DNA from: an uncultured Acidobacteriota bacterium
GTDB lineage: Bacteria > Acidobacteriota > Terriglobia > Terriglobales > Acidobacteriaceae
DNA: 64,000 nt
Direction: 5' to 3'
Assembly: GCA_963841655.1 (NCBI GenBank)
Contig: CAWJDR010000003.1
Coordinates: 74,854-138,853 of the forward strand
Shown here piece by piece: positions 38,549-46,892 of the stretch. The notes beneath the pieces were generated by a model, which searched no databases, was not told the DNA's origin, and worked only from the letters and a program-made list of their open reading frames with translations. The position numbers and the translations under genes are program-made. Numbering within the stretch: the first letter of the stretch is position 1; every line of letters begins with the position of its first letter.

Positions 38549-39240
38549 TCAGGCCGGACTCGCGTTCAGCTTCATGCGACCCGAATAAATCGCCATTCCT
38601 ACCACTGCATCCACGTCGGAGTTCATGCAGTTGGTCCACTTCTTCCTGGCTGGCAATGCCTCCGGCGACGATTAGCTGTCGCGAGGTGATTCCTCGCAAG
38701 GTCTCTTACGACATCCAGTGGAATTCCTTTCAGAAGGCCTTCTGTATCAATGTGGGTATAAAGGAAGGCGCTGCAGTACTGTTCCAGTGCCTGCACCATC
38801 GCGGCGGGAGTGATCGTAGTCATGGTGCGCCATCCCTTGATCGCGACCAGGCCGTTCTTCGAGTCGACCGCAAATGTCAGACGGTCGGCACCGAATTCTC
38901 CCGCGAACTGCTGAGCGGCGTCTACGTCGAGCCTATCGTTTCGAACCAATATTGATCCCAGAATGATCCGCCGGGCTCCCATCCGCAGAATTTCCTGCGC
39001 GCTCTCGATCGTTCGAATTCCGCCGCCCACCTGGCAGGGAAGGCGGCTAGTGAATTGCCGTAGCAGCGCACGGTTGTCACCGCTTCCGATGGCCGCATCG
39101 AGGTCAATCAGTTGCACCAGGGGATACTTGGAAAAACGGAGGATCCATTCTTCGAAATCGTCGAACTCCAGCGCCTTCTTCTCACCTTGCACCAGTTGGA
39201 CGATCTTTCCGCCCATGAGGTCGATCGAGGGGATCAGCAT
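38549..39240 (-). pseudogene. hisA: ProFAR isomerase (HisA); two frameshifts as assembled
   Basis: [20 protein letters not shown].., QVGGGIRT in ORF 38623..39435. RGITSRQLIVAGGIASQEEVDQLHEL in ORF 38343..38699. The tail DVDAVVGMAIYSGRMKLNASPA lies in a third frame and ends at TGA 38549-51. The shifts are at about 38690-38700 and 38617-38620. The ATG overlaps the hisF stop. Confidence 0.85.
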
Positions 39241-39998
39241 GGCCACCTCACCGGAATACCCGCCGCCGCAAGTTCTTGCTTGAGTTTGGCGAGTTCGGTC
39301 ACGCCATAGTGCAGGATTGAGGCTGCTAGAGCGGCGTCGGCGTGCCCTTCCTGAAAGACCTCGACAAAGTGTCTTGCCGATCCCGCTCCGCCCGATGCGA
39401 TCACCGGGATCCGAACGACATCGGAGATCGCGCATGTGAGCTCGCAGTCGAAACCCTTGCCCGTGCCGTCACGGTCCATGGAAGTAAGAAGAATCTCGCC
39501 CGCGCCTCTGGACTCTGCCTCGCGCGCCCAGGCAACGGCATCTCGTCCGGTGGGCGTTCTGCCGCCTCGAGCGAACGCTTCATAGGACCCGCCGTTGCTC
39601 TGCTTCGCGTCGATGGCCACAATCACTGCTTGCGAACCGAATCGCTCGGCAATGCAGGTGATCACGCCGGGGTCCGACAAGGCCGCGGAATTGATGCTTA
39701 CCTTGTCGGCGCCGGCATCGAACACCGCCGAGGCATCGTCCAATGTGCGCACACCACCGCCCACAGTGAACGGGATGAATAGCTCTCGCGCTGTTCGCCG
39801 CACCGTGTCGAGCAGAGTCTTCCGCTTTTCAGCGGTGGCCGAAATGTCCAGTAGCACGATCTCATCTGCTCCGGCCTTGCTGTGGGCAAATGCAAGTTCT
39901 GCTGGATCCCCGGCATCTCGCAGGTTCAGGAACTGCACACCCTTCACGACACGACCGCCGTCCACGTCCAGGCAAGCGATGATCCGTTTCGTCAGCAT
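39234..39998 (-). CDS. hisF: imidazole glycerol phosphate synthase, cyclase subunit
   Basis: 254 aa. [47 protein letters not shown]. Confidence 0.95.
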
Positions 39999-40592
39999 TT
40001 CAGCTCGCAGAAGTTCCGGAGTAGTTTCATGCCGATCGGACCGGATTTTTCCGGATGGAACTGGACTCCGAAAAGACGATCGCGCTCAACGACGGCCGAA
40101 AACACTCCCACCGTACTCGCAGGTCGCCACTGTTTCCTGGACAGGAGGAACGCGATAAGAATGCGTAAAGTAAACGAAGGTTTCGCTGGGAAGGTCGCGC
40201 AGCAGTCGGGATTTGCCCGCAAGCTGAAGCTGATTCCAGCCCACGTGCGGCGATTTTACGTCCGCAGGGAAGTGGACGCACTCACCAGGAAAAACGCCCA
40301 AGCCTGCGACGTCGGGCGCTTCGGTGCTGGAAGCAAACATCCATTGCATGCCAAGGCAGATCCCTAGAAATGGTATTTCCCGACTGATCGCCGTCTCGAT
40401 TGCGTCCTTCAGTCCATTGTGGTCAGAGCTTCTCGTGGCAGCGAAGTGACCGACCCCTGGCACAATCACCTTCTCAGCTCGTGCCACCTCTCCAGCGTCA
40501 GCGGTGACGATGGAATCCTGGCCGAGCCAATCCAATGCCTTCTTCACGGAAGTCAGATTCCCCGCCCCGTAGTCCACGATCGCGATCGTCAC
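39992..40592 (-). pseudogene. hisH: imidazole glycerol phosphate synthase, glutamine amidotransferase subunit; one frameshift as assembled
   Basis: ORF 40086..40592 (MTIAIVDYGAGNLTSV, GICLGMQ) runs on as ..EYGGSVF / [19 protein letters not shown].. into ORF 39992..40222. The shift is at about 40095-40102, next to an A/T run. Confidence 0.88.
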
Positions 40593-41176
40593 AGGACCCC
40601 CTTCGTGCTAGGGATAAAGCGAGCCATACGGCGATCGCGCCAGCAGGCCGCTCGCACGGCGCGCGCAAAGGCCTTGAAGAGCGATTCGATCTTGTGATGA
40701 TTGGAGCGGCCGTACAAGACTCGCGTATGCACGTTAGCTCGCGCGCCGCGCGCGAATCCTTCAAAGAAGTCGTGGACGAGTTCTGCCTGCAGATCCCCGA
40801 CCAGTCTTACGCGCACCTTGGTATCCACCACGATTGAAGTCCTGCCGCAGAAGTCCACGGCGGCAAGACCCAAGGTTTCATCCATGGGCATCAGAGAAAT
40901 AACCGGCGCGCAGGATTCCCTTCTTGTTACCCAACGCTTTGTCAAACGCCTGACCAAGCACGATGCCCACATCTTCGACGGTGTGGTGTTGGTCGACTTC
41001 AAGGTCACCACGAGCCTTGAGGTCCAGATCGAATCCTCCGTGATGAGCAAACAGTTCGAGCATGTGGTCGAAGAAATTGATTCCAGTCGAGATCTTGTAC
41101 TGTCCATGACCGTCGATGTTCAGGACCGCCGGATATCGGTCTCCTTGGTGGGCCGATGAATGCGTGCCTTCCTCAT
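40589..41176 (-). pseudogene. hisB: imidazoleglycerol-phosphate dehydratase; two compensating frameshifts as assembled
   Basis: ATG 41176 gives [15 protein letters not shown]. Then [53 protein letters not shown] (ORF 40878..41384). Then [17 protein letters not shown]...[17 protein letters not shown] (ORF 40589..41107). The shifts are at about 41127-41133 and 40890-40897. Confidence 0.88.
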
Positions 41177-42253
41177 CCCTGCACCTGTTCACGTAGCGCG
41201 CCGATTTCCTGCAGCGTTTCTCGCAGTGCCGACAGCAGACGGTCCGTCTGCTCAGCCGAGCCCAGCGTGATACGAACACAGCCTTCGCAGTTGGGATCAC
41301 GAGAGCGGTCACGGACCAGTATCCCGCGTTCGCGCATGCGGCCGATGAAAGCAGAATTGAGGGAACCCAAGCGCAGCAGAACAAAATTTGCCCGACTCGG
41401 CCAGAAGGGAATGCCTCAGAGATTTCAGCTCGCGCTGCAAGAGCTCTCTCCCTTCGCAGGTTTGAGCGACGTAGTCACGCATGTACTCTGCGTCCGCCAA
41501 TGCCTCCGGCAAGCAAGCTAACGCAATCGAATTGACGTTGTAAGGGGAGGCGACACGACGGACGGCGCTCATCTGCTGTGCGTCACCCATCAGGAGGCCT
41601 GCGCGTAGGCCGGCGAGACCATAGGCTTTGGAAAAAGTGCGCGCCACAAAAACGTTTGGCTGCTCTCTCCATCTTCCCAGGAGAGTCTCCCCGTGAAATT
41701 CGAAGTACGCCTCATCAACGAGCAGCGCCGCATCCGGGGCAGCATCGGCGATCCGCAAAAGGTCATCAATGGGTGCCGCAGATCCCGTGGGATTGTTAGG
41801 ATTCGCAATCGCGATCAGACGAGTGGCCGGAGTCACCCTGCGTAAGACGTCGGCCGTCGGAAACGAGAAGTCACTTCCCGCTGGGATCTTGGTAATGCGC
41901 GCTGCAGTCGCTGCGGCGAAGATCTCATACATCGCGAAGGTCGGCACAACGAGCAGGGCTTCATCTCCAGGTTCCAGGTACGTTTCAGACAACAGGTGGA
42001 TCGCCTCGTCGACCCCGTTGGTCAGCAGCAGTTCGTCGGGGCTTGTTCCCAGGTGTCCTGCTACGACAGCCTCGACCGGTTCGCGTTCCGGATAACGTGC
42101 CAGTTCTTCGAAACCGATACTTCGCAAGCGCTCCAGAACCCGAGGAGAGCAGCCCACCGTATTTTCGTTGAAGTCGAGGCGCAGCCCGGTGCGGCCTCCG
42201 AGTGGTGGGTGGTAGGTGGGCAGGTTGCGCACGGCCTCGCGTGGGCTAAGCAT
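41173..42253 (-). pseudogene. hisC: histidinol-phosphate aminotransferase; one frameshift as assembled
   Basis: ORF 41309..42253 (LDFNENTVGCSP, ANPNNPTG, TFSKAYGLAGLRAG) continues ..ELKSL / [38 protein letters not shown].. into ORF 41173..41370. The shift is at about 41413-41420. Confidence 0.9.
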
Positions 42254-43484
42254 CCGGATATCTCACACGAATGGATTCTGAATGTGCGTGTAGCCCTTCT
42301 GTCTCGGCGAGATGGGTTACCGTTCTTCCGATTCTTTTGAGTCCTCGCTCGGAAAGTTCCTGCACCGTGATGATCTTTACGAAGTCCAACACCGAAAGCC
42401 CACCACGAAATCGCGCAACGCCCGCAGTCGGCAAAACGTGATTCGGGCCGGAGGCGTAGTCGCCGGCAGCTTGAGCGGAGAATTCGCCCACAAAAATCGA
42501 GCCCGCATTCTGAATGGAAGTAAGGTCGAACGGGTCTACCGTGAGGTGTTCCGGCGCAATCCGGTTCGCCCACTCGATGGCTTCGGCAGGAGAACTCGCC
42601 AGCAGAATGCAACCATTTCGGGTCATCGCCTGATTTGCAACCTCGTTGCGATCCGTGAGTTTCTTCACTGCGATAGCAGTCTTATTTGCCAATTGTTTTG
42701 AAGTTGTGATGAAGATCGGCAGAGCATCTGGATCGTGCTCGCCCTGCGCAACCAAGTCGGCTGCAATAAAGTCGGGGCGCCCTCGATGGCTGAGAACAAC
42801 GGTTTCCGTTGGTCCGGCGAGGAAATCGATGGAACAATCAAACGAAATCAGCTTCTTCGCAATTGTGACGTACTGGTTCCCGGGGCCGACAATTTTGTCG
42901 ACTCGAGGAATACTCCCGGTGCCGTAGGCCAGAGCTGCGATCGCGTGTGCTCCTCCTACCCGATAGAGTTCGCGAACACCGAGCATGTGCGCTGCCGCCA
43001 TGAGTTCGGGAGAAGGGTTAGGCGAGACAACACGAATTTCACGGACGCCTGCCACCTGGGCAGGAATCACAGTCATCAGAAGCGAGGAGACTAGGGGATG
43101 GCGGCCTCCAGGCACATAACAGCCCACGGATTGCAAAGGCCTCACGACCTGCCCGAGCGAAATACCGCCCAACTGGCGACGCCACTCTCGCGGCCGCTGC
43201 CATTTGCAGAAGCGGCGAATGTTCGCCGATGCCTGCCGGAGGGATGCGCGGAGTCGCGGGGTGGCGATCGCCCATGCTGCTTCTAGTTCGGCTGTCGGGA
43301 CTTTCAATTCACGGCCGGCGAGCCCATCCCACTTCGCCGCGTATTGGCGGAGAGCACTGTCACCATTGCGGCGTACGTGTTCCACAATCTTCCGCACCTG
43401 CGACTCCAACGCACCGGACTGGGCGCCACGCTTCGACAATTGATCGACGCGCTTCGACGCATCCGCGGCAGTGAGGATCCGCAT
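42246..43484 (-). CDS. hisD: histidinol dehydrogenase
   Basis: 412 aa. VPGGRHPLVSSLLM, GPGNQYV, QGEHDPDA, DYASGPNHVLPT motifs. Confidence 0.94.
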   Translation of the reverse strand: MRILTAADASKRVDQLSKRGAQSGALESQVRKIVEHVRRNGDSALRQYAAKWDGLAGRELKVPTAELEAAWAIATPRLRASLRQASANIRRFCKWQRPREWRRQLGGISLGQVVRPLQSVGCYVPGGRHPLVSSLLMTVIPAQVAGVREIRVVSPNPSPELMAAAHMLGVRELYRVGGAHAIAALAYGTGSIPRVDKIVGPGNQYVTIAKKLISFDCSIDFLAGPTETVVLSHRGRPDFIAADLVAQGEHDPDALPIFITTSKQLANKTAIAVKKLTDRNEVANQAMTRNGCILLASSPAEAIEWANRIAPEHLTVDPFDLTSIQNAGSIFVGEFSAQAAGDYASGPNHVLPTAGVARFRGGLSVLDFVKIITVQELSERGLKRIGRTVTHLAETEGLHAHSESIRVRYPDA

Positions 43485-44354
43485 TACATCACCACCTTAT
43501 TCAGCGGATATTCGACGATCCCTTGGGCTTGAGCGGCCTTCAGCCGGGGAATCACCTGCCACGCCTCCGACTCTTCGATCACCGTATTGACCGCAACCCA
43601 CTCGCCGTCGCTCAAGGTCGATATTGTCGGCTTCTTCAGAGCAGGCAAAACGGCGAGTACGCCGTCAAGGTTCTCCTTGCGGACATTCAACATCAGCCCC
43701 ACCCGATCCTGGGCTTCCATCGCGCCACGCAGCATTAGCGCCAGATTCTCGATCTTGCGTCGTTTCTCTGCGGTCGGCCCACGCCGACTTGTTTGCAATT
43801 AGCTGTGTGTTTGATTCGAGCACCGTTTCCAATATTCGTAGCCGATTCGCCTTCAGAGAACTGCCAGTCTCCGTCACCTCGACGATCGCGTCGGCCAACA
43901 TCGGCGGCTTCACTTCGGTGGCGCCCCAGGAAAACTCCACTTGCACATCAATACTTTTGCCACGAAAGTAGTTGCGCGTGACGTTCACAAGTTCGGTGGC
44001 GATGATCCGTCCGGAAAGATCTTCGGCGCGGCGGAACGGAGAATCCTCTGGTGCAGCCAGAACCCATCTCACTTTTCCACGACTGCGCTTCGCATAAATC
44101 AAGTCGGCGACGGCGACGACGTCCAGGCCGCTCTCAACCACCCAGTCCAGGCCGGTGAGACCGGCGTCCAGCGCGCCATGCTCGACGTAGCGAGCCATTT
44201 CCTGGGCACGGATCAGCATGCACTCGATTTCGGGATCGGCCGTCTCTGCGAAGTAGGATCGTGCGCTCGTATAAACTTCGAGACCCGCCCGTGCAAAAAG
44301 CTGAAGCGTCGCTTCCTGTAAGCTGCCTTTGGGGATCCCGATGCGTAGTTTCAT
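43484..44354 (-). pseudogene. hisG: ATP phosphoribosyltransferase, long form; one frameshift as assembled
   Basis: Start [17 protein letters not shown] at 44354 (ATGA overlap with hisI). The catalytic part lies in ORF 43665..44420. The C-terminal regulatory domain ([28 protein letters not shown]...) lies in ORF 43484..43798. The shift is at about 43768-43780. Confidence 0.88.
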
Positions 44355-44719
44355 CGTTGGACCTCCTGCGTACTTGCCGACGATGCTGCAGAGGAGAGCG
44401 GAATCTCTTCGGTGAAGCACGAGCGGGTTCCCAAGTGGCAGACCACCCCTGCTCCCTCTACTTGCACTCGCACGAGAAACGAATCACGATCGCAGTCCGT
44501 GCTTACCGAAATGACCCTCAACCGGTTGCCCGAGCTTTCCCCCTTGGTCCAGAGCTGGTTGCGAGTCCTGCTGAAGAAGGTGACATATCCCGAACTCAGC
44601 GTGTGCTGAAAGGCTTCCTCATTCATGAAGCCGAGCATCAGGATTTCGGCAGAGGCAGCGTCTTGCACAATGGCCGGTACCAAGCCCTGCATCTTCTCGA
44701 AGTCAATTTCCATATGCAC
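44351..44719 (-). CDS. hisI: phosphoribosyl-AMP cyclohydrolase (monofunctional HisI)
   Basis: 122 aa. [46 protein letters not shown] lies upstream. The start may be the ATG at 44713. Confidence 0.9.
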
Positions 44720-44747
44720 CCGTGCCTCCTGTTTCCGAAAAGTAAAA

Positions 44748-44778
44748 AGCCCGCTGACCTTGTTAGCGTCAGCGGGCT
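44748..44778 (-). terminator. his operon attenuator (rho-independent terminator between leader ORF and hisI)
   Basis: Perfect 11-bp stem AGCCCGCTGAC / GTCAGCGGGCT with a 9-nt loop. On the minus strand it is followed by TTTTTACTTTT. About 28 nt upstream of the hisI start. Confidence 0.8.
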
Positions 44779-44803
44779 GAATCTCGATGAGTGCTGGTCT
44801 ATC

Positions 44804-44872
44804 TCAGGAATGCACCCCCGCCGACGCGCTATGCGCGTGATGATGATGGCGGTGATGGCGATGAGACAACAT
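44804..44872 (-). CDS. his operon leader peptide (22 aa, MLSHRHHRHHHHAHSASAGVHS)
   Basis: ATG 44872-70, TGA 44806-04. 8 His codons fall within residues 4-14. GTCGGCGGG (44825-44817, codons SASAG) can pair, with one G-U, to CCCGCTGAC of the terminator 5' arm. Confidence 0.8.
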   Translation of the reverse strand: MLSHRHHRHHHHAHSASAGVHS

Positions 44873-44883
44873 CGGCAAGAGGG

Positions 44884-44912
44884 AGATTAGTAGAAGCGCT
44901 TGGCCGAGTCAA
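44884..44912 (-). promoter_or_regulatory. candidate sigma70-type promoter of the his leader/operon
   Basis: Minus strand TTGACT (44912-07), 17 nt, TAATCT (44889-84). Only 11 nt separate the -10 box from the leader ATG, and no Shine-Dalgarno sequence is present. Confidence 0.55.
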
Positions 44913-44991
44913 ACATTGAAAGTGGAGCGCAACCTCCAATATTTCGATTCCAGCCATCTGAATTTTGAATGCCGGGCCAGGCAGAACGATG

Positions 44992-45020
44992 TTGACAGGA
45001 TTTCCACAAGTCTCTAGTAT
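44992..45020 (+). promoter_or_regulatory. candidate sigma70-type promoter of the Cys leader / sulfite reductase operon
   Basis: TTGACA (44992-97), 17 nt, TAGTAT (45015-20). The leader ATG lies 9 nt after the -10 box, and no Shine-Dalgarno sequence is present. Confidence 0.6.
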
Positions 45021-45029
45021 CTGCAGATC

Positions 45030-45119
45030 ATGTTGGCTTGCTGCCAGATCTGCATCGCGTGTTGTTGTACTTGTTGTTGTACGCGTGCGTGTTCTGGCGC
45101 AGGGAGGCTGCTGACCTAA
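45030..45119 (+). CDS. cysteine-rich leader peptide (29 aa, MLACCQICIACCCTCCCTRACSGAGRLLT)
   Basis: ATG 45030, TAA 45117-19. 10 Cys codons, including two TGT-TGT-TGT runs. The ORF sits between a consensus-like promoter and a strong terminator abutting the sulfite reductase start. Confidence 0.75.
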   Translation: MLACCQICIACCCTCCCTRACSGAGRLLT

Positions 45120-45144
45120 TAAGTCCTTAAGAATCAGCAATTAT

Positions 45145-45188
45145 AGCCCACCGCCAGAGACATATCTGGCGGTGGGCTTTTTGTTTTT
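45145..45188 (+). terminator. attenuator (rho-independent terminator) immediately upstream of the sulfite reductase gene
   Basis: Perfect 14-bp stem AGCCCACCGCCAGA (45145-58) / TCTGGCGGTGGGCT (45165-78) with a 6-nt loop, then TTTTTGTTTTT ending at the ATG at 45189. 45093-45109 (TCTGGCGCAGGGAGGCT) mimics the 3' arm. Confidence 0.8.
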
Positions 45189-46892
45189 ATGACAATTCCA
45201 GCCAAAGAGACGAAGGCACAACGGGTCGAGCGACTCAAGCGGGAGAAGAACCCGTGGGAGGGGCTCGACGAGATTCGCCGGTTCGGGCGCGAGGGGTTTA
45301 GCTCGATTCCGCCCGAATGGATCGGAACGTACTTCCGCTGGTGGGGCGTCTATACCCAGGGGGACGGTGCCGGCGTCATTGGTGGTAAGGGCGGGGAAGG
45401 CAAGGCTCTGCCTTACTTCATGGTGCGAATCCGGATTCCGAATGGTTTGCTTGAAGCGCACCAGCTCCGCACGATTGCCGACGTTACGGCTCGTTACGCT
45501 CGTGGCGCGGCCGATCTTACCGTGCGACAGAATGTCCAGCTTCACTGGGTGACCATCGAAGCCCTCCCCGAAGTTCTCGATGCTCTCTGGCGGGCTGGAC
45601 TCACTACCAAGGGCTCCTGCGGCGACGATACCCGCAACATTACTGGATGCCCATTAGCGGGAGTGGACGCCGACGAAATCTTCGATGCGTCTGCGCTTGC
45701 CCTCGAAGCCAATCAATTCTTTGTCGGTAACGCCGAGTTCTACAACCTCCCCCGAAAATTCAAGATCTGCATCACGGGATGCCGGTCCTGGTGCGCCTAC
45801 CCCGAAATCAATGACGTGGGCCTGACCGCTGTAACGCGGCGCACACGCGGTGAGCAGGAAGTCGGGTTCTCTCTTCGTGTTGCTGGCGGCCTCTCGACCG
45901 ATCCCCATCTTGCCGCGCGACTCAACGCGTTCGTCAAACAGGAACAGGTTATTCCTGTTCTGAAGGGGATTGCCGAGATATTCCGTGACAGTGACGTACT
46001 TCGTGAAAACCGCGAGCGGGCTCGCCTGAAATTCCTCTTCCTGAAGCACGGTTGGACGTCCGAAACATTCCAAACGGAGCTCGAGCGCCGCATCGGATTT
46101 GAGCTCGATCCGGCGGCTGACGAGCACGTTCCCAATGACCTGTATCGCGATCACGTCGGAATTCACGCTCAGAAACAGCCAGGATATTTCTTTGTGGGGG
46201 CAGCCGTGTTGCGCGGGCGAATCACGGCCGACCAGATGCGGACCGCAGCCGATCTAGCCGACCGGTTTGCCGACGGGCACTTGCGCACCACGAACATGCA
46301 GAACCTCCTGATCGTCAACGTGCCGCGACAAAATGTGGACCCGCTAGTGAGAGAACTGGACGCAGTCGGCCTGCGGGTGAACGGCTCAGCCTTTTGGCGC
46401 GGTGCTGTCGCCTGCAGTGGCTCAGAGTTCTGCAAACTTGCGATCACTGAAACCAAGAGCTTCTCGCGCTGGCTCGTGGAGGAACTGGAAGAGAGATTGC
46501 CCGGCTTTGAGCAGCACCTGAAACTGCACGTCACCGGTTGCCCGAACAGCTGCGGTCAGCATTGGATCGCCGATTTGGGGATCGAGGGCAAGAAAATCAA
46601 GGTCGGCGATCGGATGGAGGATGCTTACTACTTTTGCGTGGGGGGAGCAGTAGGCTTGCACCAGTCTATCGCCCGTCCGGTTGGCTATCGATGCCTCGCA
46701 ACCGAGGTTCCGGATGCGATCGAGCGCCTGCTGAGGCGCTATCTTGACGATCGATATCCCAACGAAAACCTGCGACAGTTCTTCGCGCGGCACAACGACA
46801 TCGAACTGCGGGAATTTCTGGCCGGTGAACTGGTGGCAGCGGTTGCGCGCGATGCCTCCCCCGGACGAGTTCCGCACGGAGTGGAGGGATAG
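45189..46892 (+). CDS. sir: assimilatory sulfite reductase (ferredoxin-type NirA/Sir hemoprotein)
   Basis: 567 aa. Duplicated nitrite/sulfite reductase ferredoxin-like and 4Fe-4S/siroheme domains (GSCGDDTRNITGCP, ACSGSEFCKLA, VTGCPNSCGQH). Confidence 0.9.
   Translation: MTIPAKETKAQRVERLKREKNPWEGLDEIRRFGREGFSSIPPEWIGTYFRWWGVYTQGDGAGVIGGKGGEGKALPYFMVRIRIPNGLLEAHQLRTIADVTARYARGAADLTVRQNVQLHWVTIEALPEVLDALWRAGLTTKGSCGDDTRNITGCPLAGVDADEIFDASALALEANQFFVGNAEFYNLPRKFKICITGCRSWCAYPEINDVGLTAVTRRTRGEQEVGFSLRVAGGLSTDPHLAARLNAFVKQEQVIPVLKGIAEIFRDSDVLRENRERARLKFLFLKHGWTSETFQTELERRIGFELDPAADEHVPNDLYRDHVGIHAQKQPGYFFVGAAVLRGRITADQMRTAADLADRFADGHLRTTNMQNLLIVNVPRQNVDPLVRELDAVGLRVNGSAFWRGAVACSGSEFCKLAITETKSFSRWLVEELEERLPGFEQHLKLHVTGCPNSCGQHWIADLGIEGKKIKVGDRMEDAYYFCVGGAVGLHQSIARPVGYRCLATEVPDAIERLLRRYLDDRYPNENLRQFFARHNDIELREFLAGELVAAVARDASPGRVPHGVEG

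Follow-up and report, generated by a model that had tools for sequence, protein, structure and literature searches.

A predicted histidine-codon leader attenuator in front of the hisIGDCBHFA operon of Terriglobales (Acidobacteriota)

Enterobacterial hisL combines a short open reading frame (ORF) carrying a run of His codons, the RNA pairings 1:2, 2:3 and 3:4, and a terminator upstream of the first his gene. His-leader attenuators have also been predicted in several Firmicutes lineages, namely the Bacillus cereus group, Peptostreptococcaceae/Lutispora and Erysipelotrichales (PMC9413887), and a hisS/hisZ leader has been predicted in bacilli (PMC2965389). Leader peptides that begin at the 5' end of the messenger are a further related class. 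The main text of a study of Deinococcus deserti reports 14 predicted leaderless leader peptides whose transcription starts were mapped (PMC4007540). Polycysteine leaderless small ORFs (sORFs) of mycobacteria, according to the abstract and outline of a study of them, act on translation by unmasking a ribosome-binding site and not through an intrinsic terminator (10.1101/834739). Here we describe a candidate His leader on the minus strand of a 64,000-nucleotide (nt) stretch from an uncultured Acidobacteriota bacterium (assembly GCA_963841655.1, contig CAWJDR010000003.1, positions 74,854 to 138,853). We refer to this whole stretch as the window. The element lies directly upstream of hisI, the first gene of a complete hisIGDCBHFA operon.

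We interpret the leader as a His-responsive, ribosome-mediated transcription attenuator that would sense the charging of His-tRNA, and from sequence and folding models we give this interpretation a probability of roughly 0.85. We infer the transcription start, the leaderless translation, the terminator function and the histidine response from the sequence. A first-pass annotation, made from the letters of the window, had proposed a His leader with a terminator/antiterminator attenuator in a lineage that did not look proteobacterial. Comparative analysis supports that proposal, and the lineage is Acidobacteriota, order Terriglobales.

By sequence and constrained folding, the element has the properties of the mechanistic class: a short His-rich ORF, a terminator, an antiterminator exclusive with it, and appropriate positions for a stalled and a terminating ribosome. 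It matches no described family. Over the whole window no Rfam family reaches its gathering score, and in a permissive search of 44600-45200 (E up to 10) the His_leader family RF00514 is not among the 13 weak matches, an outcome that the first-pass annotation had allowed for. No T-box is found there either, and a T-box was ruled out on that ground. The sole leader family among the weak matches, Thr_leader, is noise at 15.2 bits (E = 3.8), where the gathering score is 55; the anti-hemB, Atu_C7 and Thr_leader matches merely align to the terminator hairpin. The leader peptide, searched in two variants, matches zero Pfam families at E up to 10, and it matches zero NCBIfam families at E up to 0.01.

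Layout and conservation of the leader

The elements of the leader were read directly from the minus strand between 44500 and 45200, and are as follows.

44884..44912, minus strand: predicted leader promoter, with a -35 box TTGACT (44912-44907), a 17-nt spacer and a -10 box TAATCT (44889-44884)
44804..44872, minus strand: leader ORF of 22 codons plus stop, MLSHRHHRHHHHAHSASAGVHS, from ATG 44872-44870 to TGA 44806-44804
44831..44863, minus strand: putative regulatory His codons, 8 CAY per 11 codons, with two CGC (Arg) and one GCG (Ala) between them
44848..44857, minus strand: segment 1, 5' strand of the predicted anti-antiterminator, CAUC.ACCGCC, in the His run; its partner is GGCGG.GGUG at 44822-44813
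44824..44838, minus strand: predicted apical hairpin ACGCGC-AUA-GCGCGU, the tip of the 1:2 structure, which encodes H-A-H-S-A
44817..44827, minus strand: segment 2, 5' strand of the predicted antiterminator, GCGUCGGCGGG, within the ORF; its partner is CCCGCUGACGC at 44776-44766
44738..44778, minus strand: predicted intrinsic terminator (segments 3 and 4), with an 11-bp stem 44778-44768/44758-44748, a 9-nt loop and a U-run at 44747-44738
44711..44730, minus strand: Shine-Dalgarno sequence and hisI start, AGGAGG at 44730-44725 and GTG 44719 or ATG 44713

The first-pass annotation had named the promoter, the ATG at 44872, the His-run ORF, the 11-bp hairpin, the AGGAGG and hisI, and each is found where it was placed. 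The leader ORF reads ATG TTG TCT CAT CGC CAT CAC CGC CAT CAT CAT CAC GCG CAT AGC GCG TCG GCG GGG GTG CAT TCC TGA, so that 8 His fall within residues 4-14 of the peptide and 9 occur overall. This is the single site in the whole window, in all six frames, with at least 6 His codons per 11; in 50 shuffles of the window, whose G+C content is 57%, the number of His codons per 11 was never above 6. The arms of the terminator, AGCCCGCTGAC (44778-44768) and GTCAGCGGGCT (44758-44748), enclose the loop GCTAACAAG and pair perfectly at 11 of 11 positions, and the U-run TTTTACTTTT (44747-44738) is directly 3' of the hairpin. The roughly 30 nt from the U-run to hisI have room for the Shine-Dalgarno sequence, which lies outside the terminator hairpin, and not for a separate promoter. 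The fold energy of the 156-nt leader has a z-score of -3.5 relative to dinucleotide shuffles. The hairpin cannot be the terminator of an upstream gene, as the upstream neighbour is divergent.

Relatives were found by a HisI protein scan of one genome per GTDB species. The scan gave 80 loci with 65-84% HisI identity to the window, all from Terriglobales, Terriglobia, Acidobacteriaceae, Candidatus Sulfotelmatobacter or otherwise unclassified Acidobacteriota metagenome-assembled genomes (MAGs). Sufficient upstream sequence was present at 78 loci, and 77 sequences make up the alignment (A1) to which the counts and percentages below refer unless another number is given. The first-pass annotation regarded absence of the His-run ORF from relatives as the outcome that would speak against attenuation; a His-run mini-ORF (at least 5 His in 10 residues) is found upstream of hisI at 78 of 78 loci, with the peptide consensus M..H.HHRHHHHAH(S/N)A.AGV. 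All 78 loci likewise have a hairpin whose core, GCCCGCUGA / UCAGCGGGC, is nearly invariant, with a U-run after it. The leader ORF of the relatives has 19-28 codons (median 21), including 5-10 His codons (median 7), and its stop position and reading frame are also kept. At several loci (L019, L069, L078, L027, L043, L059 and others) the distance from the terminator to hisI is 100-220 nt rather than about 30 nt, with extra sequence between the two.

As an independent check, JGI soil and peat metagenome contigs were picked by an RNA-core pattern alone (GGCGG...TG, CCCGCTGA, CAGCGGGCTTTT). At least 120 contigs matched and 120 were examined. Among the matches listed, the His-run ORF is present in 116 of the 119 contigs with sufficient flank, and hisI lies no more than 700 nt downstream in 115 of 118, with 59-94% identity to the window.

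The promoter elements are conserved as well. TTGAC and TAnnnT at a spacing of 17-18 nt are found in 75 of 77 aligned relatives, and 6-13 nt, most often 7, separate the -10 box from the leader start codon. The start codon is ATG in 75 of 77 sequences and is preceded by a tetramer resembling a Shine-Dalgarno sequence in 6 of 77; the window ORF has no Shine-Dalgarno sequence. As translation would begin immediately downstream of the -10 box, with no Shine-Dalgarno sequence in front, the leader ORF is probably translated from a leaderless or nearly leaderless mRNA, a start that we place from promoter spacing and on which the first-pass annotation made no remark. Such a start is plausible in this lineage, since Zheng et al. 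predicted leaderless genes in each of the three Acidobacteria genomes that they examined, at 9.7-19.4% of genes (PMC3160421).

Codon selection, alternative pairings and competing explanations

The conserved positions of the leader fall into two kinds. At the His codons, positions 1 and 2 are 87-100% conserved and the third base is C in some sequences and T in others (T48/C26, C45/T32 and C50/T27 are examples). This synonymous variation argues for selection on the meaning of the codons, His, and not on the RNA sequence, and on these grounds we take the leader ORF to be translated and read as codons. In the stretch GCG UCG GCG GGG GUG, the third position is G in 77/77, 71/77, 77/77, 65/77 and 73/77 sequences, respectively. 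For comparison, 28 conserved four-fold sites of hisI were taken from these genomes; the frequency of the commonest base there is 0.58 at the median and 0.84 at most, and thus stays below 0.95 at every site. The frozen synonymous stretch coincides exactly with the segment complementary to the 5' arm of the terminator. Judged from these bases, segment 2 is constrained at the RNA level, its four-fold degenerate sites included.

Three pairings were examined across the alignment. RNAalifold applied to the full alignment returned the terminator, a 3-bp stub and nothing else, and the alternative helices were specified by hand for the pairing tests. The terminator stem is 91.6% paired, with a median hairpin energy of -23.2 kcal/mol. 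It includes double changes from G-C to C-G and from C-G to U-A, and both its covariation score and its percentage of paired cells lie above 500 of 500 column shuffles and above every slid register.

The antiterminator had been described in the first-pass annotation as a 9-bp helix with one G-U pair. The two strands, GTCGGCGGG (44825-44817) and CCCGCTGAC (44776-44768), are indeed complementary with one G-U; the length was underestimated, as the pairing reaches 11 bp (44827-44817 with 44776-44766) and the folding model adds an inner GGUGC:GCACU helix. Across the alignment 90% of its cells are paired, compared with 26-52% in slid registers, and the six core pairs are held in 94-100% of sequences. 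What variation there is affects one side of a pair at a time (G-U, A-U, G-C; C-G, U-G).

A third pairing appears in the minimum free energy fold without a ribosome. Here the His-codon bases CAUC and CCGCC (44857-44848) pair with GGCGG and GGUG of segment 2 (44822-44813) around the apical hairpin. The His-codon helix is 87% paired, the apical hairpin 85% and the whole structure 76.8%. One pair of the apical hairpin shows CG to UA double changes in 9 sequences, and the covariation of the whole structure, 0.211, exceeds 500 of 500 shuffles, with slid controls at or below 0.115. The design is therefore the classical 1:2 / 2:3 / 3:4 arrangement, with the His-codon region pairing with segment 2, and not the compact two-hairpin design that had been suggested at first.

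Two conserved blocks, CUGAGAUAG and AGCACUCA, lie between the leader stop and the terminator (window 44791-44808, minus strand; columns 176-217 of alignment A1). In the first, UGA and UAG occur in two frames; this block is able to pair with the start of the ORF, UUGUCUCA, though across relatives no more than 58% of cells are paired. For the second, the antiterminator model gives a pairing with GGUGC, at 79%. These blocks may serve as a helix extension, a pause site or a fail-safe stop.

The spacing of the segments is appropriate for control by a ribosome. From the middle His codon to the start of segment 2 the median distance is 18 nt (range 15-24), which places segment 2 just past the footprint of a stalled ribosome. 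From the end of segment 2 to the stop codon the median is 10 nt (range 4-25; 10 nt in the window), within the footprint of a terminating ribosome. The leader stop is 23-45 nt from the terminator arm. We modelled three states by folding the transcript up to the terminator loop with ribosome-covered bases forced to be unpaired, and scored the antiterminator as formed when at least 5 of 7 core bases of the terminator arm paired with segment 2. It formed in 74 of 77 sequences with the ribosome on the His run, in 15 of 77 with no ribosome, and in 0-3 of 77 with the ribosome at the stop codon. In these models the weight rests on the contrast among the three states and not on the stalled state by itself.

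These results suggest the following sequence of events. Transcription would begin at, or a few nt before, the AUG of the 22-codon ORF, and a ribosome would load without a Shine-Dalgarno sequence and trail the RNA polymerase. When histidine is plentiful, the ribosome would pass the His codons and reach the UGA, where its footprint would cover GCGUCGGCGGG of segment 2 and so leave the 5' arm of the terminator free; the 11-bp hairpin and U-run would then form and transcription would end about 30 nt before hisI. When His-tRNA is scarce, the ribosome would stall in the CAY run, masking segment 1 and leaving segment 2 free about 18 nt past the middle His codon. Segment 2 could then pair with the newly made 5' arm of the terminator (11 bp plus the GGUGC:GCACU helix). 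Formation of this antiterminator would block the terminator and allow polymerase to read into hisIGDCBHFA. If no ribosome loads, segments 1 and 2 would pair with each other and termination is again predicted, a state known as super-attenuation.

Several observations weigh against attenuation as set out here. The -10 box is weak relative to the Escherichia coli consensus, and a generic promoter and terminator scanner called neither the His promoter nor the His terminator. The promoter was missed because its -10 box matches TATAAT at just 3 of 6 positions (T1, A2 and T6 are kept), and the terminator because its 9-nt loop exceeds the limit of the tool, which is 8. In the window, the gap between -10 box and start codon is 11 nt, and the mRNA may carry a leader of 3-5 nt (predicted 5' untranslated region of about 0-5 nt) and not be strictly leaderless. 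The ribosome footprints were modelled with fixed offsets. When the spacer was shuffled as a control, the C-rich terminator arm found some upstream partner in 62% of trials, so that the formation of an antiterminator in the stalled state is weakly discriminating when taken alone. Finally, compensatory double changes are all but absent from the antiterminator (1 cell in 692), which shows no excess over column shuffles. As both of its strands are nearly invariant, its support comes from conserved complementarity and from the freeze at synonymous sites, and not from covariation.

The leader might be regulatory and have a different output. It could act through Rho-dependent termination, through control of hisI translation, or by binding a protein or tRNA, with the His codons incidental to the pairing. 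Precedents exist in the mycobacterial Cys-rich leaderless sORFs, which by the abstract and outline of that report unmask a downstream ribosome-binding site and do not act through a terminator (10.1101/834739), and in the actinobacterial cys leaders, which lack terminators (PMC1262725). We nevertheless consider such an output improbable. The GC-rich hairpin (about -23 kcal/mol) and its immediate U-run are kept at 78 of 78 loci, and the hisI Shine-Dalgarno sequence sits outside the hairpin. Neither a T-box nor any other riboswitch is matched in Rfam, even at E up to 10, and the synonymous variation of the His codons indicates selection for their coding role and not for pairing.

Alternatively, the mini-ORF might encode a functional His-rich micropeptide, for instance a metal-binding one, with its own terminator; expression of the his operon would then be independent of it or rely on constitutive read-through. 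The outline of the peptide is conserved in the 78 genomes (M..H.HHRHHHHAH.A.AGV), and peptides rich in His are able to bind Ni or Zn. Against this, the C-terminal half is conserved as nucleotides, four-fold sites included, in a form complementary to the terminator arm, while the peptide outside the His run varies by clade (AHSASAGVHS, VHNVLAGVC, AANVSAGITG) and matches no Pfam or NCBIfam family. The ORF is also always positioned directly upstream of hisI, and the roughly 30 nt between the U-run and hisI hold a Shine-Dalgarno sequence and no promoter. We therefore rate a micropeptide as very improbable. The His-codon run and the hairpin might also lie together by chance or without function, a reading for which the lack of covariation in the antiterminator and otherwise an a priori possibility alone can be cited. 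We dismiss it because the element is conserved in relatives (78 of 78 genomes and, among the matches listed, 116 of 119 metagenome contigs), has a His-codon density that is unique in the 64 kb and unmatched in 50 shuffles, and shows covariation in the terminator and the anti-antiterminator.

The his operon and a divergent candidate cysteine leader

The attenuator would regulate the operon that follows it.

38623..44719, minus strand: predicted regulated operon hisI-hisG-hisD-hisC-hisB-hisH-hisF-hisA, from an NCBIfam match for each gene and the ORF map

The gene order given in the first-pass annotation is borne out by these NCBIfam matches. Five of the eight genes are split by frameshifts, namely hisG (43484-44420), hisC (about 41173-42253), hisB (40589-41384), hisH (about 39992-40592) and hisA (38623-39435), all on the minus strand, and the split genes give truncated family matches. 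In relatives such as L001, hisG and hisD are intact, and alignment located a single extra base in the hisG of the window. Breaks of this kind also occur in some related MAGs (L006). The frameshifts likely reflect indel errors of long-read MAG assembly, which they fit better than pseudogenes. The leader ORF itself agrees with its relatives.

A second candidate leader is found on the opposite strand.

44992-45188, plus strand: candidate Cys attenuator, with promoter 44992-45020, ORF 45030-45119, hairpin 45145-45178 and U-run 45179-45188

Its promoter consists of TTGACA (44992-44997), 17 nt and TAGTAT (45015-45020), followed by 9 nt to the ATG at 45030. Of the 29 residues encoded by the ORF, MLACCQICIACCCTCCCTRACSGAGRLLT, 10 are Cys; its stop codon is at 45117-45119, and a perfect 14-bp hairpin (45145-45178) is followed by TTTTTGTTTTT. 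Both signals of this leader, promoter and terminator, are called by the generic scanner. The U-run abuts the ATG at 45189 of a gene of the sulfite/nitrite reductase family with no Shine-Dalgarno sequence, and the same is true in L001-L009. Either this gene starts without a Shine-Dalgarno sequence on an A/U-rich, unstructured stretch, or its true start is downstream. The next genes, as read from their ORF sequences with no family library run, are sirohaem synthase, uroporphyrinogen methyltransferase and phosphoadenosine phosphosulfate (PAPS) reductase.

The Cys leader is conserved in the nine closest relatives, L001-L009, which are the sole relatives that keep the synteny. In constrained folding, UCUGGCG after the last Cys codons pairs with CGCCAGA of the terminator arm if a stalled ribosome occupies the Cys run, and is sequestered by UGCUGCCAGA in the other states, which is the three-state logic of the His leader. 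In these models the element looks like a leader-peptide attenuator with an intrinsic terminator, placed before a sulfate-assimilation operon. It would differ in that respect from the actinobacterial cys leaders, which have no terminators (PMC1262725), and from the mycobacterial polycysteine sORFs, which are described in the abstract and outline as unmasking a ribosome-binding site (10.1101/834739), whereas the Cys leader here would be of the terminator type.

The His and Cys leaders stand back to back in one divergent control region of about 470 bp (44720-45188). Strict intrinsic terminators are rare, with five sites in the 64 kb, counting both strands (a perfect stem of at least 7 bp, at least 5 G/C in a stem arm and at least 6 T in the next 9 bases). 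The terminators of the two leaders are two of these five, and they occupy 5' regulatory positions and not gene ends. The parallel architecture with Cys codons on the other strand suggests that the lineage uses the mechanism more generally. That Terriglobales may control several amino-acid pathways in this way, through a whole set of intrinsic terminators under leaderless leader peptides (a 'ribulon', as Canestrari et al. use the term), is a conjecture to which we give even odds.

Comparison with known leaders

Terriglobales are among the most abundant soil bacteria, and to our knowledge almost nothing is known of their gene regulation. The His leader would be an order-wide, experimentally testable cis-regulatory RNA for a core pathway. 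The alignment of about 77 genome sequences and more than 100 metagenome sequences is a basis for a family in the style of Rfam, and the leader also provides a rule for annotation, as an ORF of 19-28 codons is overlooked by gene callers.

A search of full-text literature found no description of an acidobacterial His leader; most subscription journals lay outside its coverage, and an earlier mention is possible, for example in the surveys of Gelfand or Lyubetsky. A leaderless His leader is not described in the main text of PMC4007540, where 'histidine' occurs 0 times and the 14 peptides are tabulated in supplementary table S9, or in the abstract or outline of 10.1101/834739. The element is apparently an independent family that has not been described before.

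The predicted logic is the same as that of enterobacterial hisL: a stalled ribosome leads to the antiterminator, and full translation or no translation leads to the terminator. The His-run ORF, the 1:2, 2:3 and 3:4 pairings and the position of the terminator are shared. Homology of sequence or structure is not detectable with RF00514, Pfam or NCBIfam, and the two systems differ in several details. The first gene here is hisI and not hisG, the His run is broken by Arg and Ala codons that supply pairing bases, the 5' strand of the antiterminator lies inside the ORF, and the leader ORF, which lacks a Shine-Dalgarno sequence, is probably leaderless.

The leaderless leaders of Deinococcus and mycobacteria, as far as the main text of the one report and the abstract and outline of the other describe them, would resemble the His leader, as predicted here, in starting at or next to the transcription start, in having no Shine-Dalgarno sequence and in carrying codons cognate to the pathway. 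The start proposed for the His leader is placed by promoter spacing and not by mapping. The T-box (His) riboswitches of Firmicutes and Actinobacteria have the same purpose, sensing the charging of His-tRNA, and the same terminator/antiterminator output. However, a T-box senses uncharged tRNA by binding it directly, without a translated ORF, and Rfam finds none here. The first-pass annotation had assigned T-boxes to the Firmicutes, which is partly right and too simple, as His-leader attenuators are predicted in several of their lineages (PMC9413887; PMC2965389).

Those Firmicutes leaders are similar to the element described here in being lineage-specific, in using a terminator and an antiterminator, in giving no match to RF00514 and in having been found by comparative genomics. 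They differ in belonging to another phylum, in their unrelated sequences, in having 3-5 consecutive His codons and in not being reported as leaderless. Independent His leaders are thus an established phenomenon, an element type that has arisen or diversified repeatedly. The leader of Terriglobales leaves the understanding of the attenuation mechanism itself unchanged, and is one more case in line with the view that attenuation by leader peptides arose anew or was remodelled on many occasions, in this instance with initiation that would not depend on a Shine-Dalgarno sequence. Its novelty lies in the lineage and the sequence family and not in the mechanism, with the leaderless start and the pairing of His and Cys leaders possibly a further novelty.

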